In this document: piece by piece, positions 30,278-63,171 of the stretch | Numbering within the stretch: the first letter of the stretch is position 1 | How the letters are laid out: each line of letters starts with the position of its first letter | NCBI RefSeq assembly: GCF_024502345.1 | Contig: NZ_JALDNN010000001.1 | Reading direction: 5' to 3' (one strand) | DNA length: 64,000 nt | DNA from: Escherichia coli | Lineage (GTDB): Bacteria; Pseudomonadota; Gammaproteobacteria; Enterobacterales; Enterobacteriaceae | Notes under the pieces: generated by a model | Told to the model about the DNA's origin: nothing | The model's input: only the letters and a program-made list of their open reading frames with translations | Database searches by the model: none | Made by a program: the position numbers and the translations under genes

Positions 30278-31945
30278 GTGGCTCAATTCGTTTATACCAT
30301 GCATCGTGTCGGCAAAGTTGTTCCGCCGAAACGTCATATTTTGAAAAACATCTCTCTGAGTTTCTTCCCTGGGGCAAAAATTGGTGTCCTGGGTCTGAAC
30401 GGCGCGGGTAAGTCCACCCTGCTGCGCATTATGGCGGGCATTGATAAAGACATCGAAGGTGAAGCGCGTCCGCAGCCAGACATCAAGATTGGTTACCTGC
30501 CGCAGGAACCGCAGCTGAACCCGGAACACACCGTGCGTGAGTCCATTGAAGAAGCGGTTTCTGAAGTGGTTAACGCCCTGAAACGCCTGGATGAAGTGTA
30601 TGCGCTGTACGCCGATCCGGATGCCGATTTTGACAAGCTGGCCGCTGAACAAGGCCGTCTGGAAGAGATCATTCAGGCTCACGACGGTCATAACCTGAAC
30701 GTACAGCTGGAGCGTGCGGCGGATGCGCTGCGTCTGCCGGACTGGGACGCGAAAATCGCTAACCTCTCCGGTGGTGAGCGTCGTCGCGTGGCGTTGTGCC
30801 GCCTGCTTCTGGAAAAACCAGACATGCTGCTGCTCGACGAACCGACCAACCACCTGGATGCCGAATCCGTGGCCTGGCTGGAACGCTTCCTGCACGACTT
30901 CGAAGGCACCGTTGTGGCGATTACTCACGACCGTTACTTCCTCGATAACGTTGCAGGCTGGATCCTCGAACTTGACCGCGGTGAAGGTATTCCGTGGGAA
31001 GGCAACTACTCCTCCTGGCTGGAGCAGAAAGATCAGCGCCTGGCGCAGGAAGCTTCACAAGAAGCGGCGCGTCGTAAGTCGATCGAGAAAGAGCTGGAGT
31101 GGGTACGTCAGGGAACTAAAGGCCGCCAGTCGAAAGGTAAAGCACGTCTGGCACGCTTTGAAGAGCTGAACAGCACCGAATATCAGAAACGTAACGAAAC
31201 CAACGAACTGTTTATTCCACCTGGACCGCGTCTGGGTGATAAAGTGCTGGAAGTCAGCAACCTGCGTAAATCCTACGGTGATCGCCTGCTGATTGATGAC
31301 CTGAGCTTCTCGATCCCGAAAGGGGCAATCGTCGGGATCATCGGTCCGAACGGCGCGGGTAAATCGACCCTGTTCCGTATGATCTCTGGTCAGGAACAGC
31401 CGGACAGCGGCACCATCACTTTGGGTGAAACAGTGAAACTGGCATCGGTTGATCAGTTCCGTGACTCAATGGATAACAGCAAAACCGTTTGGGAAGAAGT
31501 TTCCGGCGGGCTGGATATTATGAAGATCGGCAACACCGAGATGCCAAGCCGCGCCTACGTTGGCCGCTTTAACTTTAAAGGGGTTGATCAGGGTAAACGT
31601 GTTGGCGAACTTTCCGGTGGTGAGCGCGGTCGTCTGCATCTGGCGAAGCTGCTGCAGGTTGGCGGCAACATGCTGCTGCTCGACGAACCAACCAACGACC
31701 TGGATATCGAAACCCTGCGCGCGCTGGAAAACGCCCTGCTGGAGTTCCCGGGCTGTGCGATGGTTATCTCGCACGACCGTTGGTTCCTCGACCGTATCGC
31801 CACGCACATCCTGGACTACCAGGATGAAGGTAAAGTTGAGTTCTTCGAAGGTAACTTTACTGAGTACGAAGAGTACAAGAAACGCACGCTGGGCACAGAC
31901 GCACTGGAGCCGAAGCGTATCAAGTACAAGCGTATTGCGAAGTAA
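30278..31945 (+). CDS. ettA: ABC-F translational throttle EttA (YjjK)
   Basis: 555-aa, GTG start, two ABC ATPase cassettes (GLNGAGKST, LSGGERRRV). Confidence 0.96.
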   Translation: MAQFVYTMHRVGKVVPPKRHILKNISLSFFPGAKIGVLGLNGAGKSTLLRIMAGIDKDIEGEARPQPDIKIGYLPQEPQLNPEHTVRESIEEAVSEVVNALKRLDEVYALYADPDADFDKLAAEQGRLEEIIQAHDGHNLNVQLERAADALRLPDWDAKIANLSGGERRRVALCRLLLEKPDMLLLDEPTNHLDAESVAWLERFLHDFEGTVVAITHDRYFLDNVAGWILELDRGEGIPWEGNYSSWLEQKDQRLAQEASQEAARRKSIEKELEWVRQGTKGRQSKGKARLARFEELNSTEYQKRNETNELFIPPGPRLGDKVLEVSNLRKSYGDRLLIDDLSFSIPKGAIVGIIGPNGAGKSTLFRMISGQEQPDSGTITLGETVKLASVDQFRDSMDNSKTVWEEVSGGLDIMKIGNTEMPSRAYVGRFNFKGVDQGKRVGELSGGERGRLHLAKLLQVGGNMLLLDEPTNDLDIETLRALENALLEFPGCAMVISHDRWFLDRIATHILDYQDEGKVEFFEGNFTEYEEYKKRTLGTDALEPKRIKYKRIAK

Positions 31946-42712: not shown

Positions 42713-44263
42713 ATGCCCACTTCTCATGAAAATGCACTGCAACAACGTTGCCAGCAAATTGTCACCAGCCCAGTGCTTAGCCCGGAGCAGAAGCGCCATT
42801 TTCTGGCACTGGAAGCAGAAAACAATCTGCCTTACCCACAGCTTCCTGCCGAAGCCCGCCGCGCGCTGGATGAAGGTGTAATCTGCGATATGTTTGAAGG
42901 TCATGCGCCGTACAAACCGCGCTATGTCTTACCCGATTACGCCCGTTTTCTGGCGAACGGTTCCGAATGGCTGGAGCTGGAAGGCGCGAAAGATCTTGAT
43001 GACGCACTCTCTCTGCTGACCATTCTTTACCACCACGTACCGTCGGTCACATCGATGCCGGTCTACCTGGGGCAACTGGATGCGTTGTTGCAACCGTATG
43101 TTAGAATTCTAACACAAGACGAGATCGATCTTCGAATAAAACGTTTCTGGCGTTACCTCGACAGAACCCTGCCAGACGCCTTTATGCACGCCAATATCGG
43201 CCCGTCTGATTCGCCTATTACCCGCGCGATCTTACGTGCAGACGCAGAGTTGAAGCAGGTTTCACCGAACCTGACCTTTATCTACGATCCTGAAATCACC
43301 CCTGATGACCTGCTGCTGGAAGTGGCGAAGAACATCTGTGAATGTAGCAAACCGCACATCGCCAACGGTCCGGTGCATGATAAAATTTTCACAAAAGGGG
43401 GCTACGGGATTGTGAGCTGTTACAACTCACTGCCGCTGGCTGGTGGTGGCAGCACGCTGGTACGCCTTAACCTGAAAGCCATTGCCGAGCGCAGCGAATC
43501 GCTGGATGACTTCTTTACGCGCACTCTACCGCACTACTGCCAGCAGCAGATCGCCATCATCGATGCGCGGTGTGAATTCCTCTATCAACAATCACACTTC
43601 TTTGAGAATAGCTTCCTGGTGAAAGAAGGGCTGATTAACCCTGAACGTTTTGTGCCAATGTTTGGCATGTATGGGCTGGCGGAAGCGGTTAACTTGCTGT
43701 GTGAGAAAGAAGGGATTGCCGCGCGCTACGGTAAAGAAGCCGCCGCAAATGAAGTGGGTTATCGCATCAGCGCGCAACTGGCGGAGTTTGTCGCCAATAC
43801 CCCCGTGAAATATGGCTGGCAAAAACGCGCCATGTTACACGCACAGTCGGGGATCAGTTCCGATATCGGCACCACGCCGGGCGCGCGTTTGCCGTATGGC
43901 GATGAGCCAGATCCGATCACCCATCTGCAAACTGTCGCCCCGCATCATGCTTATTATTATTCCGGCATCAGCGACATTCTGACGCTCGACGAAACCATCA
44001 AACGTAACCCGCAGGCACTGGTACAGCTTTGCCTCGGTGCCTTTAAAGCCGGAATGCGTGAATTTACTGCCAATGTCAGCGGTAACGATCTGGTTCGCGT
44101 TACCGGTTATATGGTGCGTTTGTCGGATTTAGAAAAATATCGCGCCGAAGGTTCACGCACCAACACCACCTGGCTGGGCGAAGAAGCCGCACGCAACACT
44201 CGTATTCTGGAACGCCAGCCGCGCGTGATAAGCCATGAACAGCAGATGCGCTTTAGTCAGTAA
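42713..44263 (+). CDS. yjjI: YjjI, glycine-radical-enzyme-like protein (DUF3029)
   Basis: 516-aa ORF; position and length match K-12 yjjI. Confidence 0.88.
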
Positions 44264-45098
44264 GATTATCCCCTTCTCCTGCGTTGACGGGCCAGGCAGT
44301 CGTCTGGCTCTGTTTTTGCAGGGCTGCAATCTGCGCTGCAAAAACTGTCACAATCCGTGGACGATGGGACGCTGCAATGATTGCGGAGAGTGCGTGCCAC
44401 AGTGTCCGCATCAGGCGTTGCAGATTGTTGACGGCAAAGTGCTGTGGAACGCTGTGGTCTGCGAGCAATGTGATACCTGCCTGAAGAGGTGTCCGCAACA
44501 TGCCACGCCAATGGCGCAATCCATGAGCGTGGATGAGGTGCTTAGCCATATCCGCAAAGCGGTGCTGTTTATTGAAGGGATAACGGTAAGCGGCGGCGAA
44601 GCCACGACCCAACTGTCGTTTGTAGTGGCGCTATTTACAGCCATCAAAAACGATCCGCAACTGCGCCACCTCACCTGCCTCGTGGACAGTAACGGTATGT
44701 TGAGCGAAACCGGCTGGGAAAAATTACTCCCGGTGTGCGACGGCGCGATGCTCGATCTCAAAGCGTGGGGGAGCGAATGTCATCAGCAATTAACCGGACG
44801 CGATAATCAGCAGATTAAGCGCAGCATCTGTTTGCTGGCAGAGCGCGGTAAGCTGGCGGAACTGCGTTTGCTGGTAATTCCAGACCAGGTGGATTATTTG
44901 CATCACATCGATGAGCTGGCGACGTTTATCAAGAGACTTGGCGATGTTCCGGTTCGCCTGAATGTGTTTCATGCCCACGGCGTGTATGGCGAGGCGCAAA
45001 GCTGGGCGAGCGCCACGCCGGAAGACGTTGAGCCGTTGGCTGATGCGTTAAAGGTGCGCGGGGTGAGCCGGTTGATATTTCCGGCGCTCTATTTGTGA
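44235..45098 (+). CDS. yjjW: YjjW, radical-SAM glycyl-radical activating enzyme
   Basis: 287-aa; CxxxCxxC cluster (CNLRCKNC) plus additional Cys motifs; overlaps the yjjI end. Confidence 0.88.
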
Positions 45099-45100
45099 CA

Positions 45101-45285
45101 TGCCGGATACGGCCTACGGTTCGGCACAAACCTGTAGGCATGATAAGACGCGTCAAGCGTCGCATCAGGCATTGTGCGCCAACTGCCGGATGCGGCGTGA
45201 ACGCCTTATCCGGCCTACGGTTCGGCACAAACCTGTAGGCATGATAAGACGCGACAAGCGTCGCATCAGGCATTATGCGCCGACT
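45101..45285. repeat. Tandem duplication of a REP/BIME unit (period about 101 bp)
   Basis: cctacggttcggcacaaacctgtaggcatgataagacgcg[t/a]caagcgtcgcatcaggcatt[g/a]tgcgcc occurs at about 45113 and 45214. Confidence 0.85.
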
Positions 45286-45311
45286 GCCGGATGCTGCCTA
45301 CGAAGGGCAAA

Positions 45312-46094
45312 CTACCCACGAACGTTAAACACCGCATACGTGTTATTAAGCAACACTTCGGCAATCTCATCCGCCGGTTCCCGGCGCAACTCGCAAAGCA
45401 CGTCAAACACCCGCGCAGCCTGTTCCGGGCGGTTAGGCTGCCCTTGAAAGCCGTTGAGCGGCATATCCGGCGCGTCGGTTTCCAGCAACAACGATGCCAG
45501 CGGTAATTTTGCGATGACATCGCGGGTTTTACTGGCGCGTGGATAGGTGATAGTACCGCCTACGCCGATTTTGTAGCCCAGCTGTACAAACCGCTCGGCC
45601 TGTTGCAGGCTGCCGGAAAAACCGTGAACCACGCCAGTGCGCGATAAATCGTGGCGTTTAAGATGCATCGCCAGTTTGTCGTGTGTGCGCCGTGAATGCA
45701 GGATCACCGGCAGATCGTAGCGTTTCGCCAGTTTCAGTTGTTCGTCGAGTAACCACTGCTGCCTCTCAAATTGCGGATCGTCGCCGAAGAGATCCAGACC
45801 GATCTCCCCCACCGCCACCACCTTCGCCGGACGCCTTTCCAGCGCCTGCTGTAGCTGATCAAGAGACACATCGCTATGTTTTTCCAACATCCCCGGATGC
45901 AACCCCAATGCGGCATACAGCGGTTGATATTTTTCCGCTAACGCCTGCACGCGGGCAAAATTTTCCGCCTCTGTCGCCGGAACAATGATCTTGCCTACAC
46001 CCGCTTGTGCCGCGCGTTGCAGGCTGGCCTCTTCATCGCCACTAAACGGCGGAAAATCAAAATGGCAGTGGGTGTCGATAAAACGGCAAATCAA
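45312..46094 (-). CDS. yjjV: TatD-family metal-dependent hydrolase YjjV
   Basis: 260-aa MICRFIDTHCHFDFPPF... (HxH metal motif). Confidence 0.9.
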   Translation of the reverse strand: MICRFIDTHCHFDFPPFSGDEEASLQRAAQAGVGKIIVPATEAENFARVQALAEKYQPLYAALGLHPGMLEKHSDVSLDQLQQALERRPAKVVAVGEIGLDLFGDDPQFERQQWLLDEQLKLAKRYDLPVILHSRRTHDKLAMHLKRHDLSRTGVVHGFSGSLQQAERFVQLGYKIGVGGTITYPRASKTRDVIAKLPLASLLLETDAPDMPLNGFQGQPNRPEQAARVFDVLCELRREPADEIAEVLLNNTYAVFNVRG

Positions 46095-47164
46095 GCCAGA
46101 TCCTCATTGTTAAATGTCGGGTCGTTCGCCTGCGGAGCATCGCTCACTTCGGCAACCAGCGTATCGTTGGCGACTGGCGCAGGCGGAATAACAATCGATT
46201 CCGGCGTCACCACTGGCACCAGATGGCGGGTAAGCGGCGCTTTTTCAGTTAATAGCTTGCCAACCGTGGCGAGGAAATAACGACCGCATAAACGCCCAAG
46301 TTTATAGTCTTCACGCAGCGCCGGAATCCGACTGCCAAGCGCGATACTATGTAATGGCTTCGGCGGATAAATTTCGAATATCCGCAGCTTGCCCGGTGGT
46401 TTCTCAATAAATTGCTGAATGTCACGATAGCTGGTTTCATGATGCTGCACCAGATTGACCAGCGGCTGCAGGCTACTGTCACCCAGCCAGCGTTCCATGC
46501 GTTTGAACCACTGCGGCGTGTAGTACATTTGTGACGGCACAGTGCGGATGACGACCAACGTTTTAGCGCCCTGCCTTGCCGCCTCTTTAACCGGAATCGC
46601 ATCACTGATCCCGCCATCCAGGTAGTTAATGCCTTCCAGCGACACTCCGCTACGATAAAAGCCAGGTATCGCACTGGAGGCGCGAATCACATCCAGCCAG
46701 TTTTGTTTGGTTGGTAAAAAGTAATTCGGCGCGTAGTCATCCTGACGACAGGCGCACATATAAAACGATTTGCCGCTGTCAAACAACCGCGCGGCGGTAT
46801 CCATTTGCAACGGCATCTGGCTTGCGGTGGCCTCCACCAGCCAGTCGAGATCGATAAGATTTCCTCCACGGACAAAGCGCAATGGATCGAAAAATTCGCG
46901 TTTTGTGGTATAGCGCATGATGACTTTGCGCGCGTAACCGGGCTGATTGCAGATAAACGCCGAGAGGTTCTGCGCCCCGGCAGATGTGCCGAGATAAAGA
47001 TCGAAAGGATTAAACTGCGCGCGCATAAACTCATCCAGCACGCCAGCCGTGAAAATTCCACGCTGTCCGCCGCCTTCGCACACCAGAGCTATTCGTCCAG
47101 GCTGGAACGGCCTTAGCGACAACGGCGCAATATTACCCAGCGTTACAGGTATTCGCTGCCCCAC
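46091..47164 (-). CDS. yjjU: Patatin-like phospholipase YjjU
   Basis: GxGxxG...GTSAG patatin motifs; start set at the GTG giving 357 aa, which is uncertain. Confidence 0.85.
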   Translation of the reverse strand: MGQRIPVTLGNIAPLSLRPFQPGRIALVCEGGGQRGIFTAGVLDEFMRAQFNPFDLYLGTSAGAQNLSAFICNQPGYARKVIMRYTTKREFFDPLRFVRGGNLIDLDWLVEATASQMPLQMDTAARLFDSGKSFYMCACRQDDYAPNYFLPTKQNWLDVIRASSAIPGFYRSGVSLEGINYLDGGISDAIPVKEAARQGAKTLVVIRTVPSQMYYTPQWFKRMERWLGDSSLQPLVNLVQHHETSYRDIQQFIEKPPGKLRIFEIYPPKPLHSIALGSRIPALREDYKLGRLCGRYFLATVGKLLTEKAPLTRHLVPVVTPESIVIPPAPVANDTLVAEVSDAPQANDPTFNNEDLA

Positions 47165-47285
47165 CTCTGCCTTCCTGTTTTTGTTGTGAAAGAATGACAA
47201 AGTAACGCAATTTATTATTCGCTAAAACCGCAAAAGCCAGTCCGCTGGACTGGCTTTGGATAAAATTTTCTTAATGGTCTGAAAT

Positions 47286-47447
47286 CTAGGGTCGTTTTCG
47301 GCCCATGAACAAACTCACCAGGAACAGAATAATCCCGACGACAAAGACAATTTTAGCTGCGCCTGCAGCGGTACCGGCCAGACCACCAAACCCAAGTGCG
47401 GCGGCGATTAACGCGATAACCAGAAATATGATGCCCCAACGAAACAT
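47286..47447 (-). CDS. ytjA: Small membrane protein YtjA (DUF1328)
   Basis: 53-aa [53 protein letters not shown]. Confidence 0.85.
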
Positions 47448-47573
47448 AAGCGTCTCCTTTACCATAGTTAATGTCACCGCTTGATATGAGCGTGAAAATC
47501 ACTCAATGCGATATTTTTAGTGTGGTGCACATCGCGCCTCCCGACAAAGTTCGGGAGGACGAATTACGACGAA

Positions 47574-48179
47574 TTACTTAGTTTTCAGATCATTTTTAAC
47601 GCTTTTCACACCATCTACCGCTTTGGCGATACTTTCAGCACGGTCACTTTGTGCCTGAGAATCTACGGTACCGAAGAGCTGAACCACGCCATCGGTGGTT
47701 TCAACTTTCACATGACGGGAAGGGACGATATCGTCCGCCAGCAGTTTGGCTTTGATTTCACTGGTGGTGGCGGTGTCACCCGCGTAGCCCTTCACCGAGC
47801 CTTCTTTAGCGTCGCGAACGTGCAGTTTGTCGCTGACAGAGGTCACCCCTTCAACGCCTTTCGCCACTTTTACTGCCTCTTCGGCCTGGGCCTGGCTTTC
47901 AACGAAACCGCTCAGGGTCACGACTTTTTGATCGGTTTTTACAGAGATATCGGTGCTCTTGATGTTGTCATGATCCACCAGGGCCGCCTTCACTTTCGCG
48001 GTGATGGCGCTGTCATCCATGAAATTACCGACTTTATTCATAGAGCTATCGACTTTTTGCCCTGCGCTTTCATTGGTAGTCTGCGCGTTGTTTTCCGCGT
48101 AGGCAGAGCCGGTCGCGACGGCAGAGGTCAACATTACAGCCAGCAGAGTTTTCGAAATCTTCAGTCTTGTCATAGTCAT
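47574..48179 (-). CDS. osmY: Osmotically inducible periplasmic protein OsmY
   Basis: 201-aa from [28 protein letters not shown]...; two BON domains. Confidence 0.95.
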
Positions 48180-48571
48180 CGATTTATTCCTGTATGTTTG
48201 CTCGTAATTTGAGCCTGGCAACACGAGGTTGCATTGCTGAATAGGGAGAGACTTCACCCTCTACAGAAGTCAATGGTCGCCATCACAAAAGCGATGAGTG
48301 ATAAATAACGACCATTACAGCCTCTGAATCAGTTATTAATATCGGTAGAATGACAATCGACGGCTTTAGATACTGATATCTACGCATTGAACGGTATTTA
48401 ACGCCGTCAGAAATGTCATCACTTTGTTAAATATAGATCACAATTTTGAAACCGCTCGTGATATCAGCGAAAACATAAGCAAAAGTGAATGTTTTAAGAA
48501 CATTCCGTAAGCGGCTAATAAGGAAGGGAAATTGACAGGGCGCAGCGGCTACCGCGCCCTGGAGGCAAGAA

Positions 48572-50158
48572 TTAATGCTCGCGGGTCTGGTGGAACTGAA
48601 CGTCCGGATAACGTTCCTGCGCCAGGCGCAGATTGACCATGCTGGTAGCGATGTAAGCGAGGTTATCGCCGCCATCAAGCGCCAGTTGGCTTTCGTTCTT
48701 ACGCTTGAACTCTTCGAATTTCTTCGCGTCCGCACATTCTACCCAGCGGGCAGTGGCAACGTTGACTGACTCATACACTGCTTCAACGTTGTATTCGCTC
48801 TTCAGGCGCGCTACAACCACATCAAACTGCAGCACACCAACTGCACCAACGATCAGGTCGTTGTTGGAGATCGGACGGAACACCTGCACCGCGCCCTCTT
48901 CGGAAAGCTGTACCAGCCCTTTGAGCAGCTGTTTTTGCTTCAGCGGATCTTTCAGGCGGATACGACGGAACAGTTCTGGTGCGAAGTTCGGAATACCGGT
49001 GAACTTCATCATCTCACCCTGGGTAAAGGTGTCGCCGATCTGAATGGTGCCGTGGTTGTGCAGGCCGAGGATATCGCCAGGATACGCTTCTTCAACGTGC
49101 GAACGGTCACCCGCCATAAAGGTCAGCGCGTCAGAGATCACCACGTCTTTCGCGGTGCGCACCTGGCGCAGCTTCATGCCTTTTTCATATTTACCGGATA
49201 CCACGCGCATAAACGCCACGCGGTCGCGGTGTTTCGGGTCCATGTTGGCCTGAATTTTAAATACGAAGCCGGTAAATTTGTCTTCGCTCGCTTGTACGGT
49301 ACGGGTATCAGTCTGACGCGGCATCGGCGCAGGTGCCCACTCCACCAGGCCATCCAACATATGATCGACGCCGAAGTTACCCAGCGCAGTACCGAAGAAT
49401 ACCGGAGTGATTTCGCCCGCAAGGAACAGCTCTTTGTCGAACTCGTTAGACGCGCCTTTAACCAGTTCCAGTTCGTCACGCAGCTGCTGTGCCAGATCTT
49501 CACCAACCGCAGCATCGAGATCCGGGTTATTCAGCCCTTTAACAATGCGGACTTCCTGAATGGTGTGCCCTTTACCGCTCTGATAGAGATAGGTTTCATC
49601 TTTATAAAGGTGGTAAACGCCTTTAAACAGCTTGCCGCAGCCAATCGGCCAGGTGATCGGCGCACAGCCGATTTTCAGCTCGTTCTCAACTTCATCGAGC
49701 AGTTCCATCGGGTCGCGGATATCACGGTCAAGTTTGTTCATAAAGGTGAGGATCGGCGTGTCGCGCAGACGGGTAACTTCCATCAGCTTACGGGTACGAT
49801 CTTCAACACCTTTTGCGGCGTCGATAACCATCAGGCAGCAGTCCACCGCCGTCAGGGTACGATAGGTATCTTCCGAGAAGTCTTCGTGCCCCGGGGTGTC
49901 TAGCAGGTTAACCAGGCAATCGTGATACGGAAACTGCATCACAGACGTAGTAATGGAGATCCCACGCTGCTTTTCCATCTCCATCCAGTCCGACTTAGCG
50001 TGCTGGTTGGAACCACGGCCTTTTACTGTACCAGCGGTCTGAATGGCCTGTCCGAACAGCAGCACCTTCTCGGTGATGGTAGTTTTACCGGCGTCCGGGT
50101 GAGAAATAATTGCAAAGGTTCTTCTTTTCGCTACCTCTGCGGCCAAAAGGCTTGTCAT
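48572..50158 (-). CDS. prfC: Peptide chain release factor 3 (N-terminus differs from K-12)
   Basis: 528-aa from [27 protein letters not shown]...; K-12 RF3 as recalled begins MTLSPYLQEVAKRR. Confidence 0.93.
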
Positions 50159-50176
50159 AATTGTTGTCTCTTTGAT

Positions 50177-50293
50177 TATGTACAATCATATGTACAAAGA
50201 AAAATTCATGCCGCTGATTGTACATTTTGGAGGTATCAGAGCATAGCAGAACATGATCAGTAGGTGTATTTGTAGCCAAAGAACATTTGTACA
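50177..50293. repeat. Cluster of four TGTACA hexamers (two as TATGTACAA spaced 12 bp)
   Basis: TGTACA at 50179, 50191, 50219 and 50288, far above chance; lies between the prfC start and the dinI-like gene. Confidence 0.6.
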
Positions 50294-50346
50294 TGCAGCA
50301 ATCTTTGTTCTATTGACACTGTTTATTCATACAGTTAAAAATAACA

Positions 50347-50362
50347 CTGTATACAAACACAG
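50347..50362 (+). promoter_or_regulatory. LexA (SOS) box upstream of the dinI-like gene
   Basis: ctgtatacaaacacag = CTGT-N8-ACAG, 16 bp upstream of the start codon. Confidence 0.75.
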
Positions 50363-50377
50363 TGTAGAGGGATTTTT

Positions 50378-50626
50378 ATGCGTATTGAGATCTGCATAGC
50401 CAAAGAGAAAATGACTAAAATGCCAAACGGTGCTGTGGATGCGTTAAAGGAAGAATTAACTCGACGCATCAGTAAGCGTTATGACGATGTAGAGGTGATC
50501 GTAAAAGCCACCAGCAACGATGGCCTTTCTGTTACGCGCACCGCCGATAAAGATTCAGCTAAAACTTTTGTTCAGGAAACTCTGAAAGATACCTGGGAGT
50601 CTGCTGACGAGTGGTTTGTTCACTAA
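50378..50626 (+). CDS. DinI-family DNA-damage-inducible protein
   Basis: 82-aa [31 protein letters not shown]...[15 protein letters not shown]; C-terminus resembles DinI (QETWESADDWF). Confidence 0.85.
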
Positions 50627-51052
50627 TTAACACGTAAAATCGGTAACGGCTGGAAATCATTCAATACTCGCACTATCGGAAGTTCACCAGCCAACCGCAG
50701 CACGTTCTTGCATACGACGTGTCTGCGGTTTTTCAACCATTCAGATACAGCACTCTCATCACATTCATTCTTCCGCATTAAAGTATATATGACCATATCA
50801 CCTTAATATTTTTCTTCTTCAGATAAAAATTGTTATCTATGTATACTTTTAAACCGAATCCGTGTAGAGTCTCTACCTAAGTTAGTTCGCAGCTACCCCT
50901 TCAGTTTGCGCCATTAACCTCCTGACTTTTGCCGCTATCTGTAAGCATTCCTGTATACCTGAAACTACAGGGTTCATCTACGAACTTTAAGAACACCCAG
51001 GATAAAAATTGTCAACTATATTATATATAACACCATACTAATTCGAGGCTAT

Positions 51053-51166
51053 ATGAACAGCATACTGATAATCACTTCACTACTTATCATATTCAGCATT
51101 TTTGGTCATGCTCTAATAAAATTAGGGATTGGCATATCCAATAACCCGGACAAAACCGATGTATAA
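51053..51166 (+). CDS. Hypothetical 37-aa hydrophobic peptide
   Basis: [37 protein letters not shown]; GAGG 5 nt upstream of the ATG; promoter-like AT-rich element upstream. Confidence 0.35.
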
Positions 51167-51234
51167 GTCAACATATCCTGAATCAGACATACAATATTGC
51201 AATGAAAACCAATAATATTTTAAGGAATATCTTC

Positions 51235-51468
51235 ATGAAATCAAAAGACACCCTAAAGTGGTTCCCTGCGCAGCTTCCTGAAGTCAGAATTATCCTGGGA
51301 GATGCTGTCGTGGAAGTAGCAAAACAGGGAAGACCTATCAATACCAGAACATTGCTTGATTACATTGAAGGAAACATAAAGAAAAAGTCATGGCTGGATA
51401 ACAAAGAATTATTACAAACAGCGATATCAGTTCTTAAAGACAACCAAAATTTAAATGGTAAAGTGTAA
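51235..51468 (+). CDS. ydfK: YdfK/YnaE-family prophage protein (cold-shock-inducible family in K-12)
   Basis: 77-aa MKSKDTLKWFPAQLPEVRIILGDAVVEVAKQGRPINTRTLLDYIEG...; AGGAA RBS. Confidence 0.7.
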   Translation: MKSKDTLKWFPAQLPEVRIILGDAVVEVAKQGRPINTRTLLDYIEGNIKKKSWLDNKELLQTAISVLKDNQNLNGKV

Positions 51469-51847
51469 TACCTCCCCTGAAAAATAATTTTTCAATGCAT
51501 TAAAAAAATATCAACAACTACGTTATTCCGCAACAACCTACTTTTTTTACCATTTTTCCACTTTAACAACATTTTGCTCCACTTTTCCACGACCAAACAA
51601 CTTAAAATCTGGTTAAAATAACATACAACACTATTATTCGTCTTCCTCGAGTCCGCCCGGAGTTCGAAAAACAAACCGAGTTAAAGCCATTTTTCAAAAA
51701 ATCGATTTTTGGTTACACCAAAATTACGGGACTGCATCCGAATTCGTTTATTTTCGAACGTATACATACAAATATGTACAATAATAAGCGAAATAATTTT
51801 TGGATATGCATTATGATATGTACACCAATTTCGTATAGAGTCTCACT

Positions 51848-52438
51848 ATGTCTCGAATTTTTGCTTACTGTCGGATATCAACGCTGGATCAGACCCCCGA
51901 AAATCAACGCCGGGAAATCGAAAGTGCAGGTTTTAAAATCAAACCTCAGCAAATAATCGAAGAACACATTAGCGGCTCAGCAGCAACCAGTGAGCGTCCT
52001 GGTTTTAACCGGTTGCTTGCTCGCCTGAAATGTGGTGATCAATTGATTGTGACAAAACTGGATCGCCTTGGTTGTAATGCAATGGATATCAGGAAAACAG
52101 TGGAACAACTGACCGAAACAGGTATCAGAGTGCATTGCTTAGCATTGGGGGGCATTGACCTGACCAGTCCAACAGGAAAAATGATGATGCAAGTAATTTC
52201 AGCAGTCGCTGAATTTGAACGAGACCTTTTACTTGAACGCACTCATTCCGGGATAGTAAGAGCCCGGGGCGCAGGGAAACGTTTTGGTCGACCACCTGTG
52301 TTAAATGAAGAACAGAAACAGGTGGTATTCGAACGAATTAAGTCAGGTGTAAGTATAAGTGCCATTGCCCGGGAATTCAAAACCTCGCGGCAAACCATTT
52401 TAAGAGCCAAAGCAAAACTTCAGACACCTGACATATAA
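51848..52438 (+). CDS. pin: Serine recombinase, Pin-like DNA invertase (PinQ/PinR type)
   Basis: 196-aa [15 protein letters not shown]...; resolvase/invertase catalytic N-domain plus C-terminal HTH. Confidence 0.85.
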
Positions 52439-52535
52439 AAAATAATCTCGGTGTGAGATGCTTTACGTCTTCCAAGCCCCCTTCCTTGCCGTAAATGGAA
52501 AGATACATCTAATTATAGAATTTATATGTTTTACC

Positions 52536-53111
52536 CTACGGCAGTGCTGGCCATTCAATATCCTGTGCAGTTGACGTATCAACACGGTTCAGCAATACCC
52601 GATACTTTTTCCATGCTTCCAGCAACGAGATTTCTTCCTCCGTTGCAATTTCCAGATCTGCAGCATCCTGAAGCGGCGCAATATGCTCACTGGCTACCTG
52701 CATCAGGTTGTTTTTTGTTTCTTCCGCCTCCCGGATCCGGAACAGTTTTTCTGCTTCCGTATCCTTCACCCAGGCTGTGCCGTTCCACTTCTGAAACTCC
52801 CCTTCCGGGGATAACCAAGTGACATTTTCCGGTAATGGGCCAAGTTCAGAAATAAATAACGCGTCGCCGGAAGCCACGTCATAGACGGTTTTACCCCGAT
52901 GGTCTTCAACGAGATGCCACGATGCCTCATCACTGTTGAAAACAGCCACAAAGCCAGCCGGAATATCTGGCGGTGCAATATCGGTACTGTTTGCTGGCAG
53001 ACCTGTATGAGGTGGAATATATGCATCACCTTCACCAATAAATTCATTAGTTCCGGCCAGCAGATTATAAATTGTTATGGTCCGTGGTTGTTCACTCATT
53101 CTGAAATCCAT
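52536..53111 (-). CDS. tfa: Tail fibre assembly protein Tfa
   Basis: 191-aa from the ATG preceded by an AGGTG SD; ...[37 protein letters not shown]... as recalled for TfaQ/TfaR. Confidence 0.85.
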
Positions 53112-53119
53112 GTTCACCT

Positions 53120-54022
53120 CTACTTAATATCAGAGACAGAATATTGTTTATTGAACGTATGGGTGTGAGCACCAATAACGATGCTACTTCCGTGGCTATG
53201 TGCGCCAGAGATGACATTACCTACGGGATTTTCTGGATTAATCCGGTGTATATGCGAACCAGGGCGAAACCGGTTATTAGCCTGATGTTGTATCAGTACA
53301 TCATCAGCCTGATGTTCAGGGTTAATACAGACCTGCCCGGAACGTGAGCAATACGTCCGATAATCGCCGCATCCAATATATTTAGTATCCGCATAACGGC
53401 AAACAGAATTACCCGGACAGTATGCATATGTGCCAAATACTGCCGACTGGCGGGATTGTGCGTATTCCCAGTTAATTGATTCTGTTTTTTTATTAAAGTT
53501 ATCCCATGCCTGCTTCATCTGCCGGGCAACACTTTCAAACGGCACCTGACCACATCCGGCTCCCATTGCAGGGAATACCACCGTTTTTATTTTCCTGTCT
53601 GTCGTTGCGTGTTTATTGTGCTGAAAGATGGCAAGCAGAGCGGCCCAGGTTGCGTTATATACAGCGTCTGTTCCGTCAATTGTCAGCGGAACACGCATTG
53701 TTGGCGCATGTACCAGCCAGGGATGATGATTATGCCCCGTTTCAATAACAAATGCAGAACCTACAGGCTGCTCGCCGAGATATTCACGAAGAATATGATT
53801 CTGAACGCGGGACTGTAACTGAGTACCGAAGAATGCGGTAATGGCGGCATCAACACCGCCATCCATCAGGCCGAAACTGTTTGCCGCACTTACCATGCAG
53901 TCAAATTCCCTGATTGTTTCAAATGGCTTTCCGACAATATTCACATTATCTGCATTTGCGAATACCCGCTTAAATGCTTCAGCCATTTCTGTTACTGGTG
54001 CAGAAAGAATGAGCGTAATCAT
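53120..54022 (-). CDS. Macrodomain protein with tail-fibre-like His-x-His C-terminal region
   Basis: Macrodomain motifs [42 protein letters not shown]; C-terminal ...[18 protein letters not shown]; ATG overlaps the stop of the upstream stf fragment. Confidence 0.6.
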
Positions 54023-54186
54023 GCAAGCCTCACAATATAGTTAAATGCGATGTTTTTGACGGTGTTTTCCGCGTTACCAGCAGCGTTAACGGTGATGGTG
54101 TGTCCATGTGACCCTATCGCAACGGAGTGCGTATGAGCACCAATACCGACAGTATGCGCGTGTGCACCTGCAGATACTGCTGTAAA
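54019..54186 (-). pseudogene. Side tail fibre (Stf) C-terminal fragment
   Basis: ...[51 protein letters not shown]; joined out of frame to the terminase fragment upstream. Confidence 0.7.
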
Positions 54187-54892
54187 AACGCATGAAATGT
54201 GCCGACTCGTTAGCGGCTTTTTCGATCTGGCAGGAGCCTTTGATTTTAGGCGTCGAGCCGCGAATGGATTTTGGCCATACAGAGCCCTCAATACGTTTAT
54301 CCCCCAGCAGGGTTGGCGAACCCTCTTTTTCAACATCCGGTTCGAACGAGGAAAGTTCGTCATAGCAGACCACATCCACGGATTTTTCACGGTAGTTTTT
54401 GGCGGCAGCGCCGCCCAGGCACCATAAACCGACGCCCGATGAAAAGCGTTTCAGCGTGAGGGTATTATCACGATGTTTACGACCCAGCCATGGGGAAAGG
54501 TCTTTCAGGCATGGCACGTCCCTAATCGTCGTCTCCACGTGAGACTTCATAAAATCTTCAGCGGCAGAATCCGTGGGCTGAAAAAGCAGACTGTTTCGGG
54601 ATTTATGCTCAATAAAATACCCGACCACCCCCAGCAACATCTTTGTATAGCCAACACGGGCAGATTTAATCAGATTAACTGTGCGGATCTGATCATTCCC
54701 CATACTGTTCATGATGGCGATCTGGAACGGCAGCGTTTTCCATTCGCCGTCACCGTATGAGGATTCTTTCGGCAGATAATAATACTGATCAGCCCATTCA
54801 ACTGCCGTCATCGGTACAACCCTGACCAGAGGCTGCAGCGCAACCGAAACGGCAGCCATCAGATTATTCAGTTGTTGCTCTGATATATTCAT
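54185..54892 (-). pseudogene. Terminase large subunit (lambda gpA-like) N-terminal fragment, about 235 codons
   Basis: MNISEQQLNNL...PMTAVEWADQYYYLPKESSYGDGEWKTLPFQ...[41 protein letters not shown] closely parallels lambda gpA 1-215, then similarity stops. Confidence 0.85.
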
Positions 54893-55370
54893 CCAGCAAA
54901 TCCGGTAATTTATCCCCTGCCCGCGCACACTGATTTGCGCCCTTCGCAATAAGGGTTTTCAGATGGTCAAGATGACGTGGCGTTAAATCCGGGAACTGTC
55001 GCTGCATGGATAACGGAATAGAATCAAGCGTACTGGACAATGCCATCGCCAGCTTGCTGAGGGCGAAAACGCAGAAGTCTGAATCGATGAGCTTACCTTC
55101 GGTTACCTGATTTTTAAGTTTTTGAGCTACGGCCTGTTCTTCTGTCAGTTCAGCTCTGGCCCGAAGCAGCCTTTCCTCCAGATCGCCCCCGTCATCAGGT
55201 GTTCTATGATTGTGTTGTCGCCGCTCGCGATCTATCTCCAGTACAGTTTTAACGTCATAAAAAACTTCCCTCCCCCGACGCTCGACAGGAGGAACGCCCC
55301 ATTTATCAAATGCCTGAACAGAGATACCGATGGAGGAGGCCATATCACTTTTATTCAATAAAAAGGCCAT
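54864..55370 (-). CDS. noh: Terminase small subunit, Nu1-like (Noh)
   Basis: MAFLLNKSDMASSIGISVQAFDKWGV... resembles lambda Nu1; GGAGAGGAG SD; 3' end overlaps the terminase-A fragment start. Confidence 0.8.
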   Translation of the reverse strand: MAFLLNKSDMASSIGISVQAFDKWGVPPVERRGREVFYDVKTVLEIDRERRQHNHRTPDDGGDLEERLLRARAELTEEQAVAQKLKNQVTEGKLIDSDFCVFALSKLAMALSSTLDSIPLSMQRQFPDLTPRHLDHLKTLIAKGANQCARAGDKLPDLLDEYIRATTE

Positions 55371-55797
55371 CTCCTCTCCATAAGTCATCGATAAAAAGCG
55401 ATACAACAACCATGTGTTTTTACAAAACCATTTGATATCATTTAATTTTTTCACATTAATGACATCAAAGCACATCGTAAGGTTGTTGTATTTATTTTAT
55501 TTTCACCTTACTTATCAATTAGATATACCAAACAATTAAACAACAACCACCCCCTCAAAAAATCTCATAAATAGCGAAAAACCGCGAGGTCGCCGCCCCG
55601 TAACCTGTCGGATCGCCGGAAAGGACCCACAAAATGATAATAATTATCATCTACATATCACAACGTGCGTGTACGCCATCAAACCACGTCAAATAATCAA
55701 TTATGACGCAGGTATCGTATTAATTGATCCGCATCAACTTAACGTAAAAACAACTTCAGACAATACAAATCAGCGACACAGAATACGGGACAACCTC

Positions 55798-55989
55798 ATG
55801 TCAACGAAGAACAGAACCCGCAGAACAACAACCCGCAACATCCGCTTTCCTAACCAAATGATTGAACAAATTAACATCGCTCTTGATCAAAAAGGGTCCG
55901 GGAATTTCTCAGCCTGGGTCATTGAAGCCTGCCGTCGGAGACTAACGTCAGAAAAGAGAGCATCTACATCAATCAAAAGTGATGAATAA
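55798..55989 (+). CDS. YlcI/YnfO-family small prophage protein (DUF3950)
   Basis: 63-aa MSTKNRTRRTTTRNIRFPNQMIEQINIALDQKGSGNFSAWVIEACRRRLTSEKRASTSIKSDE. Confidence 0.7.
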   Translation: MSTKNRTRRTTTRNIRFPNQMIEQINIALDQKGSGNFSAWVIEACRRRLTSEKRASTSIKSDE

Positions 55990-56242
55990 TGAATATCCCG
56001 GTTTCTTTACCTCCCCTCCCACCCCGCACAGGACTGGCGAACGTGTGGGACAAATATGTGAGTCATAAACGCCTTATCTTCAGAAATGCAGTTGGCATCC
56101 GAACAGGACGATATTGTAACTTCACCTAATTACGAGGCATTGCAGTAGTTGAATTGTAGTTCTGTATTAGCCTGACAGTGACAGAATGCGATATTGACTC
56201 TGTCACAGGTGAAATAGTTTGAATGGTTAGCAGTTATGGCGA

Positions 56243-56449
56243 TCAGTCAACCACCAGGGAATAATCCTTCGAATTCTTATCGTGCTTCACCAACGCTGCC
56301 TCAATTGCCCTGAATGCTTCCAGAGACACTTGATGTTCTATACATGCAATTACAACATCCGGATAACTCATAGAAATGGTGCTAGTGAGCATAGTTTTTA
56401 CACGGACCTGATCCAAGGATGAGTCATCAGTGTATTGATCTTTATGCAT
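56243..56449 (-). CDS. Hypothetical 68-aa protein (possibly a truncated YdfO-like gene)
   Basis: ORF only; identity uncertain. Confidence 0.35.
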
Positions 56450-56744
56450 TTTGTCGCTCCATGCGTTTGCTCTTCACTTGCGGCTAAAAATATAACGTCA
56501 AATCACTCAGCATGAAAGTGTGAAAGTTTCAGCGCGTTTCCCTTACATAATCTGTCGTTTGTATTCTCTCCAGGCATACCGGAAAGACTAGGTATTGTCA
56601 CACAACCAATACCACCGACTATCGAGATTTATATCTATTCGGTAATGTTTAAATATAAAAAAACCCCGTAAAAACGAGGTTTATGGGTAAATTGTATTGT
56701 TGAATAGCATCTGATAAGAAATTGATGCTAATACTATAAACACA

Positions 56745-56918
56745 CTAGATTAAATCAATCTTGATATCATAGCTTTCAAGACCAGTCATTTTTTCCCGTG
56801 CAGTAAACTGGATACTGGTAACTTCTTTCCCGGTCTTTTTCTTAAGCTCAATAATTTTTTTTGTTATATATTCAGAAATATCTGCTTCTGTTTTTGTTTT
56901 TAACTCTTCAATGTTCAT
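56745..56918 (-). CDS. gnsB: GnsA/GnsB-family protein
   Basis: 57-aa MNIEELKTKTEADISEYITKKIIELKKKTGKEVTSIQFTAREKMTGLESYDIKIDLI. Confidence 0.85.
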   Translation of the reverse strand: MNIEELKTKTEADISEYITKKIIELKKKTGKEVTSIQFTAREKMTGLESYDIKIDLI

Positions 56919-57090
56919 CATTTCCTCTTTTAGTCTGTTATGACTTTCCTGGTACACAGTAGTGTCAATTATATGGAGCAAACGTATAAAAGATAAGATG
57001 AAACATCGCAATAATCAACATACGACAGTCTAAATTTCGCACAAACAGATAAAGATGATTATCCTTTATTATCAAGGCATTAGAATGAAA

Positions 57091-57321
57091 TCAATTCAAG
57101 AGTCTCATTGCTGCTTCCAGAATTTCTTCTGAAGTTACATGTCGATCCGCTGCTACATAAATGACTTTATGATCTCCGGTCAGAGATGGAAACCCTGCAG
57201 CCATTACAGTGAGATGTGTTGTTTCGCCATTTGGATATTCACGCATGATGGTGTTAACTCCGGTCATCACTGGCACTACCATTGCTGGTTCAGAGTTAAA
57301 AAAAACTATTATTTTTTTCAT
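57091..57321 (-). CDS. Hypothetical 76-aa protein
   Basis: MKKIIVFFNSEPAMVVPVMTGVNTIMREYPNGETTHLTVMAAGFPSLTGDHKVIYVAADRHVTSEEILEAAMRLLN. Confidence 0.45.
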   Translation of the reverse strand: MKKIIVFFNSEPAMVVPVMTGVNTIMREYPNGETTHLTVMAAGFPSLTGDHKVIYVAADRHVTSEEILEAAMRLLN

Positions 57322-57363
57322 GATGTTACCGTAATATGTGAGTATCCATCGACTAGACACTAA

Positions 57364-57386
57364 GCAAAAAAGCTCCCGAAGGAGCC
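57364..57386 (-). terminator. Rho-independent terminator (minus strand)
   Basis: gctcccgaaggagc hairpin followed by TTTTTT on the minus strand. Confidence 0.6.
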
Positions 57387-57592
57387 TTCATTTTCACTTT
57401 CTTAAATCTAACGACAGACGGCTAACATTTAAGTATTGTGAAATATTATCAAATGTAATCATCATTGATTTACAAAAGATACATTTTGCCCCGAAAGGAT
57501 TCCTGTCAGAAACATCAAAAGATGATGTTCTATACTGAGAACCATGGCAACACGGGCATCTAAAGTGAATATGGTTTGTAATATTTTCTACC

Positions 57593-57805
57593 TCAAAGTG
57601 CCACTACATGAACAGCCGCGGGGCCTTTAGGTCCGTTCTCAATACCAAATTCGACTTGCTGATTCTCAGTTAACGTTTTGAAATCGTTGCTCTGAATAGC
57701 TGAGAAATGGACAAACACATCTTTGCTACCATCTTTCGGCGTGATGAAACCAAAACCTTTTTCAGGGTTAAACCATTTCACTAAACCAGTCATTTTGTTA
57801 GACAT
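57593..57805 (-). CDS. cspI: Cold shock protein, CspI-like
   Basis: 70-aa [70 protein letters not shown]. Confidence 0.92.
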
Positions 57806-58174
57806 CATTATTACCTTTTGAAGAAGTGAGCCCTTGGGCAGAATGGTCCGAAAAAAAATATCAGAGAGAAAAACCAACAAGGAAATCTCAAGAGGTACAA
57901 ATAATAAAATTATAACAATGACTGCTTCAGATAATTTTGTAACAAACCAGAACACCATTAACGCATGATTAACCAACCATAGCAAGGATTACTTTTGTAA
58001 AGAAAAACACACGAATGAAACAATAGCTTTATTTATTAATAAAACGTGTCATTCTGTCTAATGACCTTTTATCTTACCCTTAAGATTTCAAGGATTTTGA
58101 CTCATGGAAGAGTCCTTTTTATTTAAATTTCACATTCAGCGCTAAAAATAATCCGATTTAATGTTAATCTACAT

Positions 58175-59196
<1,022 letters not shown>

Positions 59197-59301
59197 GGAT
59201 ATTTATCAGGATTTATCGGTTTCTGAACCCTGGATATGTTTATCTGTCCCGGCCTGTTGAATCAGGCGGGGAAAAGGTAAAGACAATCAAGAGGATTATT
59301 T

Positions 59302-60576: not shown

Positions 60577-60856
60577 ATATTGTGGTACTTTTTGTGGGAG
60601 TCATCCACTTACGCACTTTGTTTTGCTATGCCAGCAGTTAGCTTCTGCTGTAAAACTATTCATGCAGCAAACCTGCACTTCACCACAATGGTTAGCATAC
60701 TTTTCCTGATTAAGTTATTGCCAAATATGCTGGCCATTGTTTCATGTATTGGACCTCCTTACTCTTTATTAAAGAGATCCAATATTCACCACTCTGTCTG
60801 TATCTCCACTCAGGCATCAGCCTTCTTCGTTATCGTATACAGACAAACTATGAATT

Positions 60857-61072
60857 TTAATCAGTAATTATGACATTTGCTGCTGCAGGACCTTTAGCAC
60901 CACTCTCTACAGAGAAGGTAACCTTTTGACCTTCAAATAAGATTCGATAATTATCATTCTGAATCGCAGAAAAATGCACAAACACATCTTTACTACCATC
61001 AACAGGAGAAATAAAGCCAAAACCTTTATCAGCGTTAAACCATTTTACTAAACCAGTCATTTTATTTGACAT
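60857..61072 (-). CDS. cspB: Cold shock protein, CspB-like
   Basis: 71-aa [71 protein letters not shown]. Confidence 0.92.
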
Positions 61073-61372
61073 TCTACATTCCTTAACTTGAGCCTTTCGG
61101 CATAAATGGCTTGTATAACAGAAACGACTTCGTACTTAATTGGAGAGACTCAAAGAAGGAATAAGTGAATAACACCTGAAATGAGAACTGCTTTAGTAAA
61201 CTACTTCGTATATCGTCTGTTCTTCAAACCGACGCAATCATTAACGCATAGTTGAACATATGAAGCAATGTTTATTTTAGACATCCAGCCATCTTCAACC
61301 CCATCAAAAAACTATAGCTTTCTTCAGGAACGTGTGTATAGTGCGCCAAGTTATCAGTATTAAGGAATTTTT

Positions 61373-62820: not shown

Positions 62821-63171
62821 TCAGCTCCAGCTGGGAGCCATACTTCTCTTCAAATGCCACGGTAAACGCTGGTTAATATCGGCATTGTCCACATCCTCGA
62901 CGTCAGGAAGAGACACAAAGACGCCATTTGCAGACTGCGCCACAGCGTCAGCAATGAAGTGAGTGCCACCAGCACGTTGTAAAATCATTGCCCATCCCAG
63001 CGGGAAAATCTGATCGCCATCGGCACGAAGGCGGTTAAATAATGCGTTCTCTGTTACATCCAGCCACTCAGCAGCTTCAGCGTACCCCACCGGCAACGCC
63101 GCGATAGTTTTTCTGACAGCTTTCACGTACCACTCAGGCTGTTTTTCCACTTTCCAGTGATGATTACCCAC
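62821..63171 (-). CDS. Hypothetical early-region protein, possibly CII-like regulator
   Basis: 116-aa, GTG start, immediately downstream of cro; family not identified. Confidence 0.45.
   Translation of the reverse strand: MGNHHWKVEKQPEWYVKAVRKTIAALPVGYAEAAEWLDVTENALFNRLRADGDQIFPLGWAMILQRAGGTHFIADAVAQSANGVFVSLPDVEDVDNADINQRLPWHLKRSMAPSWS

Follow-up and report, generated by a model that had tools for sequence, protein, structure and literature searches.

An out-of-frame terminase–side-tail-fibre junction as the scar of an internal deletion in a cryptic lambdoid prophage between prfC and yjjG of Escherichia coli

In the 64,000-nt stretch of Escherichia coli DNA analysed here (the window; contig NZ_JALDNN010000001.1 of RefSeq assembly GCF_024502345.1), an open reading frame that starts as a phage large-terminase gene runs out of frame into the end of a side-tail-fibre gene, which raises the question of how these two unrelated genes came to be joined and what the event meant for the prophage that carries them. 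According to the collinearity of its flanks with one intact prophage, the cleanness of the join and its inheritance, the junction is the scar of an internal deletion, of the kind known from the decay of cryptic prophages such as DLP12 and Qin.

The genes of interest at 51.8-55.7 kb lie on the minus strand. The whole fused ORF (54086-54892, taken from the ORF list and the sequence) encodes 268 aa and ends at a TAA stop (54086-54088), while its terminase frame starts from the ATG at 54892 (MNISEQQ...), with a 29-nt overlap with nu1. Its first part, terL' (54185-54892, minus strand), represents codons 1-236 of a gpA-type large terminase and is 68% identical to residues 1-236 of lambda gpA, with ...ESAHFMRF as the last residues; the terminase similarity stops at 54185, and the gpA match ends at residue 236-237. 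Regarding domains, the ORF matches Pfam GpA_ATPase (E=2.5e-38, residues 49-264, profile positions 5-214 of 247) and still contains the Walker A/B motifs (KSARVGYT and VVCYDEL), so that the ATPase domain is partial, and Pfam reports no match to the GpA_nuclease domain in terL'. A full-length gpA-type protein has ~641 aa and includes the nuclease, and the intact relatives indeed have 641-642 aa with PF20454. By its predicted domain content, terL' is a truncated pseudogene, not a functional terminase.

Downstream of 54185 the terL frame continues through 32 codons of fibre DNA (54086-54184, minus strand), which are unrelated to terminase and similar to nothing. The same DNA in a different codon phase (54183, 54180 and so on) holds stf' (54019-54184, minus strand), that is, the last 54 codons and the stop of a lambda-type side-tail-fibre gene. 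The 54 encoded residues are 78% identical to the lambda Stf C-terminus (residues 248-314) and match tail-fibre PHROGs at 4e-31, including phrog_295 (tail fibre, profile positions 743-794 of 794). The C-terminal HxH-repeat region of lambda-type Stf is present in stf'; the N-terminal tail-attachment domain, the shaft and the gene's own start are missing, with 54 of 1132 codons left. The stf' frame has no plausible start codon, the only candidate being a GTG inside the terL DNA. Rfam gives no match inside 54019-54892, and the promoter and terminator scans of 51400-56200 return counts at chance level. The initial annotation, which had proposed ~235 terminase codons, a break at about 54185 and ~55 fibre codons, was right within one or two units on each value (236, 54183/54184 and 54, respectively), and its description of a gpA-like frame followed by fibre DNA in another phase is correct throughout.

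To locate the endpoints, the intact lambdoid prophage at prfC-yjjG of E. coli 1504D004 (NZ_CP149565.1; extracted locus L002) served as the reference. It carries both halves of the junction in one prophage with an apparently complete morphogenesis module, and it occupies the same site as the scarred element. A Megablast search of 5,426 complete RefSeq E. coli genomes divides the region exactly at the junction, with the fibre match running to 54184 and the terminase match starting from 54183; the two halves are found together in single genomes. Pairwise BLAST places window positions 44105-54184 at L002 3-10082 and positions 54183-59240 at L002 31738-36794, the latter overlapping the fibre-side alignment by 2 bp; stf' corresponds to L002 9917-10082, the 3' end of a 1132-aa stf gene. 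At the base level, with a slash marking the join, the fibre side reads ...GCTGTA/CCGGAC and the terminase side ...GGCACATA/AAAACG. The longer parental reads are ...CAGATACTGCTGTA/CCGGACAG... for the fibre and ...GGGCACATA/AAAACGCATG... for the terminase, and the window itself reads ...CAGATACTGCTGTAAAAACGCATG... The junction therefore lies at 54183-54184, where the dinucleotide TA, common to both parental sequences, forms a 2-bp microhomology with 0 filler bases; some terminase alleles match from 54182, which makes 3 common bp (GTA). Each side's ORF is truncated at this clean junction, from which filler and mobile-element DNA are absent. Aligning the endpoints and looking for microhomology had been suggested at the outset, and the 1504D004 relative provides both.

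Both flanks of the scar are collinear with the 1504D004 prophage and 99.9-100% identical to it, with ~6 mismatches in window 50000-55500 and 0 in terL' or stf', which makes this prophage an excellent proxy for the state before the deletion. In contrast with the window, it has a 642-aa terL, the 19 head and tail genes, the 1132-aa stf and a replication/regulatory block. The absent stretch is L002 10083-31739, equal to 21,657 bp as read from a proxy rather than the direct ancestor, and the true size may differ by ~0.5 kb because stf is shorter in some relatives (979 aa in strain 06-00048). With it went 406 of the 642 terL codons, 1078 of the 1132 stf codons and 19 whole head and tail genes, namely W, portal, S49 protease, D, E, FI, FII, Z, U, V, G, T, H, M, L, K, I, J and lom. 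The claim that one clean deletion took the rest of the terminase gene and all head and tail genes is thus borne out by flanks collinear with one intact prophage. Judging from the sequence comparison, the deletion is recent when set against how far the prophage family has diverged.

The explanation that fits best, and in our view very probably the correct one, is that the junction is the scar of a single intra-prophage deletion in a lambda/Qin-like element between prfC and yjjG. An illegitimate join, either homology-independent or guided by microhomology, would have taken place at the common TA in the prophage state and removed ~21.66 kb, from large-terminase codon 237 through codon 1078 of the 1132-codon side-tail-fibre gene. 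Since the product cannot form particles, the event probably occurred in a lysogen. What is left is the 268-aa terL' ORF, with 236 native codons and 32 of nonsense, and a 54-codon piece of stf that cannot be translated, in an element presumably no longer able to cut and package DNA or to build particles. The parts kept are cos, nu1, the lysis cassette and Q on the left and the macro-tfa-pin-ydfK-ynaM-dinI accessory end on the right. The distance of the macrodomain gene from the terL start has changed from ~22.5 kb to ~0.9 kb, and late transcripts would now reach macro-tfa over this shorter distance.

As for the recombination mechanism, the clean join at 2-3 common bases between unrelated genes points to illegitimate recombination, whether microhomology-mediated or homology-independent. 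Illegitimate recombination in E. coli is known from aberrant lambda excision and from spontaneous deletions. The case described here resembles these in its clean join, the 2-3 bp in common, the lack of filler or IS DNA and the removal of tens of kilobases; it differs in an unusual 24-nt patch of imperfect homology that lies nearby and out of register. The patch, with 19/24 (79%) identity between the two breakpoints, includes the 11-mer CAGATACTGCT (54171-54181, plus strand), which stands just left of the join and, in the intact relative, recurs at the terminase breakpoint, ~28 nt into the stretch that was deleted. A shared word as long as this one was found in 1/1000 random site pairs at ±50 nt and in 17/1000 at ±100 nt, and the local-alignment score of the patch was equalled by 78/2908 random pairs. 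A deletion at a direct repeat was considered and rejected, the join being ~15-28 nt out of register with the 11-mer and the 24-nt patch. The patch may nevertheless have helped the two sites to pair.

On the terminase side of the scar, the neighbouring genes are intact. The nu1 gene for the terminase small subunit (54864-55370, minus strand) encodes 168 aa with a Pfam Phage_Nu1 match at E=2e-20; an alternative upstream ATG at 55475 would give 203 aa, and other contigs that carry the junction have 168- or 203-aa gene calls. Its counterpart in the intact 1504D004 prophage is annotated as terminase small subunit at L002 32419-32925. Upstream of nu1, lambda-like cos DNA is kept around the cosN cohesive-end sequence GGGCGGCGACCT (55587-55598, minus strand). 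The minus strand of the window reads ...CCGACAGGTTACGGGGCGGCGACCTCGCGGTTTTTCGCTATTTATGA..., and at the cos site CGGGGCGGCGACCTCGCGGTTTTTCGCTATTTATGA, against GGGCGGCGACCTCGCGGGTTTTCGCTATTTATGA at the lambda left end; the lambda-type cos site is complete.

On the fibre side, the next gene is an intact 300-aa macrodomain ORF (53120-54022, minus strand; Pfam Macro, E=7e-19), whose ATG (54020-54022) overlaps the stf' stop (54019-54021) as ATGA and which is preceded, at 5 nt, by a GAGG Shine-Dalgarno sequence of its own. The AlphaFold model confirms the predicted Macro fold for residues 1-180 and is usable for these only, the C-terminal 120 residues having pLDDT <50. The gene belongs to a large family found in prophages of Escherichia, Salmonella, Citrobacter and Erwinia. 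PADLOC reports only a weak DarG-like match (E=0.005), which is not meaningful. The macrodomain gene is followed by the intact gene for the 191-aa tail fibre assembly protein, tfa (52536-53111, minus strand; Pfam Caudo_TAP, E=4e-43), with 96.9% DNA identity to K-12 tfaQ, and by the gene for a 196-aa pin-type serine DNA invertase (51848-52438, plus strand; Pfam Resolvase and HTH_7), which is convergent with tfa. The initial annotation had the scar place the macrodomain ORF directly downstream of itself. This is correct as geometry, but the deletion did not create the arrangement, as stf-macro-tfa with the same ATGA overlap is native in intact relatives. A 63-nt gap now separates the terL' stop from the macrodomain gene, whose translation may earlier have been coupled to that of stf.

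Scars of the same type are present in two cryptic prophages of K-12. One is DLP12 (nohD - aaaD - tfaD), which has an intact Nu1 homologue, an N-terminal fragment of terminase A and a tail-fibre module directly after it; as here, all head and tail genes are gone and cos and the lysis genes are kept (PMC3945230). The fragment, aaaD, is a 309-nt terminase-A pseudogene between nohD and tfaD. DLP12 differs in keeping ~103 terminase codons against 236, in a right endpoint in tfa rather than stf, in its chromosomal locus and in having no macrodomain gene.

Qin (nohA - stfQ - tfaQ - pinQ - ydfK - ynfT) is a member of the same phage family, and the label "Qin-family" used at the outset is well founded, several segments being 93-97% identical to it at the DNA level. 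This range applies to the Qin-like part kept on the left, with ynfO, gnsB, ynfN, cspI, rzpQ, rrrQ, essQ, cspB, cspF and the Q antiterminator. The two elements share gene order in the kept right end, where pin-tfa corresponds to pinQ-tfaQ, and in the lysis/cold-shock/Q region, and both have lost the structural genes that lay between the packaging genes and the C-terminal part of the fibre gene. In contrast to the window, however, Qin has no recognisable terL; nohA abuts an open 320-aa StfQ, which retains ~260-320 fibre codons against 54 here, matches the C-terminal ~260 residues of the intact fibre only and shows no terminase similarity. Qin also is without the 0.9-kb macrodomain gene, so that the stfQ stop leads straight to the tfaQ start, as if window position 54018 were joined to 53105, and it is located at ydfJ, not at prfC. 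The DLP12 and Qin scars are of the same type as the scar described here and independent of it. The pattern of loss and retention matches published surveys, in which incomplete prophages preferentially lose terminase and portal genes and are enriched in tail-fibre and integrase genes (PMC7744054).

The occurrence of the junction was followed by its 40-mer (CACCTGCAGATACTGCTGTAAAAACGCATGAAATGTGCCG) and by the fusion protein. The junction is found in 0 of the 5,426 complete RefSeq E. coli genomes, and the exact 40-mer has no match among GTDB species representatives; it is therefore draft and metagenome assemblies that support it. The fusion protein of 268 aa occurs in identical form in 74 collection blocks, including NCBI assemblies (GCA_036619395.1, GCA_050022275.1, GCA_050023715.1, GCA_028654935.1 and GCA_050029375.1), several human-gut metagenomes and Logan runs, and the IMG/VR contig UViG_2660237951_000013 carries the same junction. 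The gene for the exact fusion protein always adjoins prfC; its 40-nt junction never varies, and over 12.8 kb the identity is 99.85-100%. The NCBI entry for the product is WP_072215954.1 ([quoted passage not shown]), recorded on 44 contigs, the longest of 4.74 Mb. The chromosomal flank of the window has at most 98.6% identity to any complete RefSeq genome. Because the same junction recurs in independent NCBI assemblies and gut metagenomes, the scar is real and marks one E. coli lineage, in which it is passed on vertically.

This deletion is not the only loss in the element. At ~62862-62867 there is a second deletion scar, at which the N-terminal ~101 codons of ymfL run into the final ~30 of the DUF968/ydfU gene beside Q, with ~5.7 kb missing in comparison with many intact relatives (Rha, HTH_36 replication protein, PerC, Dam, RusA, KilA-N and DUF968). 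This second junction (40-mer TCTCTTCAAATGCCACGGTAAACGCTGGTTAATATCGGCA) has 0 spanning matches in complete E. coli genomes, one contig in IMG/VR, which carries both scars, and one contig of 2.7 kb in JGI/ENA metagenomes, which is too short to span both. An exact-protein look-up of the ymfL' fusion finds nothing on record, and that of the Q protein finds only intact prophages among the longest contigs. Past the window end, the carrier contigs hold only a cI-like S24 repressor, a truncated SIR2-like ORF and the integrase; yfdPQR, present in 1504D004 between the cI-like repressor and int, is missing from the carriers.

Both scars are present in every unambiguous carrier contig that is long enough, that is, in the IMG/VR contig and in four contigs (L028, L029, L034 and L035) from carriers re-fetched with 10-kb flanks. 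A further carrier contig (L031) has the first scar only; its left 7.6 kb are 99.7% identical to K-12 Qin, the switch falls in a common 403-bp ynfO repeat, and the contig may be a recombinant or an assembly chimera. With a second scar and a reduced early-left region, and with both scars occurring together in the carriers, the statement of the initial annotation that the terminase–fibre deletion was the event that made the prophage cryptic goes beyond what can be demonstrated.

Several other readings of the locus were weighed against a single intra-prophage deletion followed by ordinary decay. One reading is that two or three deletions sculpted a ~16-kb unit, cI-cro-Q-lysis-cos-nu1-terL'-macro-tfa, which is controlled by the cI-like repressor, SOS-inducible and maintained by the host, rather than being a product of random decay. 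We consider this unlikely. If it were true, the benefit for the host could lie in the conserved accessory macrodomain, Tfa and Pin genes being expressed near the late promoter; alternatively, the cos-bearing element could be mobilisable by helper lambdoid phages or serve as a store of nu1/cos and stf/tfa modules for recombination.

Domestication of nu1 together with the N-terminal terL fragment, for example to poison, as a decoy, the terminase of lambdoid phages that superinfect the cell, is very unlikely. It would agree with a 268-aa ORF that is open, free of substitutions in comparison with the intact gene and still in possession of the Walker A/B region, as well as with intact nu1 and cos and the recurrence of a nu1-plus-A' remnant in DLP12. 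Zero divergence, however, is no evidence for selection, being equally expected of a recent event, and the length of A' varies from ~0 codons in Qin to 103 in DLP12 and 236 here, which speaks against a conserved functional unit; moreover, the C-terminal 32 residues are frame-shift nonsense.

The junction could also stem from recombination between different lambdoid elements, be it a pair of prophages or a prophage and a newly arriving phage, instead of a simple internal deletion. Mosaic lambdoid prophages do recombine with infecting phages at the nu1/A/cos and stf/tfa modules (PMC3945230), and L031 joins the scarred right end to a K-12-type Qin left part. Such an origin is nevertheless highly improbable: a single intact prophage at this locus matches the two flanks at 99.9-100% identity, the chromosomal DNA on either side is collinear as well, and the join, unlike a homologous exchange, lies in non-homologous DNA (terL against stf) with 2 common bases. 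As for L031, its switch inside the ynfO repeat may be an assembly chimera.

Hardly credible is a deletion by the pin-type serine invertase, which would have joined two quasi-crossover sites in direct orientation, with TA as the 2-bp core of the staggered cut. The pin gene is 1.7 kb away, serine invertases need a matching 2-bp core for strand exchange and the junction has exactly 2 common bp, and invertase-driven exchange in tail-fibre genes is documented in work cited by PMC3945230. However, a 26-bp site of the Din-family type is found at neither parental breakpoint, a degenerate hix/gix/cix-type consensus, allowed up to 3 mismatches, has no match in the window or L002, and there are no inverted repeats around the fibre module (51400-54400); Pin-mediated deletion was rejected on these grounds. 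Besides, serine invertases strongly prefer inversion over deletion. Finally, an assembly or sequencing artefact has practically no probability, for although prophage repeats often break or mis-join assemblies and no complete RefSeq E. coli genome has the junction, it was assembled independently and identically in isolates, several metagenomes, Logan runs and the IMG/VR contig, and 2 bp common to both sides leave no repeat to collapse.

A single internal deletion being the preferred reading, the scar is a further case of a known type of prophage decay, with its own endpoints and a near-identical intact reference, and it is unsurprising to phage biologists; by itself it is of little consequence. 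It does provide a base-resolved example of lambdoid decay in which the packaging and morphogenesis genes went as a single block, with cos/nu1, the lysis genes and the fibre-assembly/accessory end staying behind. The remnants of DLP12 (R, Rz, cos, nu1 and A') and of Qin and Rac (stf and tfa) recombine with infecting lambda (PMC3945230), and the cos-nu1-terL' and stf'-macro-tfa segments are homologous DNA still open to recombination with infecting lambdoid phages, as in those experiments. Regarding annotation, WP_072215954.1 should be described as a frame-shifted terminase pseudogene fused to fibre DNA, not as a terminase family protein. The 40-nt junction can be used as a lineage marker for one E. 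coli clade.

The prophage carries a second deletion scar in addition to the junction that joins the terminase large subunit out of frame to the side tail fibre (window 54183/54184). The second junction lies at window 62862–62867, within an ORF on the minus strand (62821–63171) in which the N-terminal ~101 codons of ymfL are fused to the last ~30 codons of DUF968/ydfU, and the DUF968/ydfU remnant adjoins the Q antiterminator. Compared with many intact relatives, ~5.7 kb is absent here, with Rha, replication, PerC, Dam, RusA, and KilA-N genes. According to a search of 5,426 complete E. coli genomes, none has this junction, and the 2 scars are found together in every unambiguous contig with the terminase/fibre scar that reaches far enough to cover both sites.

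Continuation of the element past window position 64000 is provided by positions 1–2700 of the IMG/VR contig UViG_2660237951_000013, which also has the terminase/fibre scar. Its gene content there consists only of a cI-like S24 repressor, a truncated SIR2-like ORF (201 aa), and an integrase (407 aa). Since yfdP/Q/R and a 377-aa hypothetical gene, which are present in an intact relative, are missing, these data suggest a third reduction beyond the window end and a whole element of ~16 kb versus ~49 kb.

As for the terminase/fibre deletion, both of its breakpoints have in common the 11-mer CAGATACTGCT (window 54171–54181), located inside a 24-nt patch with 79% identity (31701–31724 in the locus of the undeleted prophage of E. 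coli 1504D004), yet the true junction is not in register with this repeat. Such sharing is statistically unusual: the tests gave values between 1/1000 and 27/1000. The frame-shifted fusion product (window 54086–54892, minus strand) corresponds to NCBI record WP_072215954.1, named "phage terminase large subunit family protein"; it is entered as an ordinary protein and not as a pseudogene. Among contigs with this scar at prfC, a 17,978-bp Logan contig (SRR10682086) has a left part of 7.6 kb that is 99.7% identical to K-12 Qin, the usual site of which is ydfJ. The switch to Qin sequence falls within a 403-bp common ynfO segment, and the contig represents either a true homologous exchange between 2 Qin-like prophages or an assembly chimera.

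A complete lambda-type cos with lambda-like flanks (cosN GGGCGGCGACCT, window 55587–55598 and flanks, minus strand) is retained upstream of intact nu1. A helper phage with lambda cos specificity could in principle cut or package the remnant in trans.

The macrodomain protein (300 aa, window 53120–54022, minus strand), encoded between stf and tfa, belongs to PHROG group phrog_2613 and to a family that is widespread among Escherichia, Salmonella, Citrobacter, and Erwinia prophages, with 1712 matches, frequently named "phage tail protein". In contrast to the window prophage, K-12 Qin lacks the gene precisely from end to end. Conservation is strong over residues 1–245, including the motif SAAN...DGGVD...GAGCG; C202, C225, and C232 are invariant and C208 is found in at least 90% of sequences, while the C-terminus is variable, with fibre-tip-like HxH repeats. 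The macro fold predicted by the AlphaFold model is confirmed for residues 1–180 only, and the best structure match is yeast Ymx7/Poa1, followed by TTHA0132 and MacroD2.

Rfam models, all on the minus strand, place an IS009 sRNA inside the 3' end of tfa (window 52570–52768) and 2 cspA-type thermoregulator leaders at 57566–57963 and 60794–61233, both upstream of prophage cold-shock genes (cspI-like and cspB-like).
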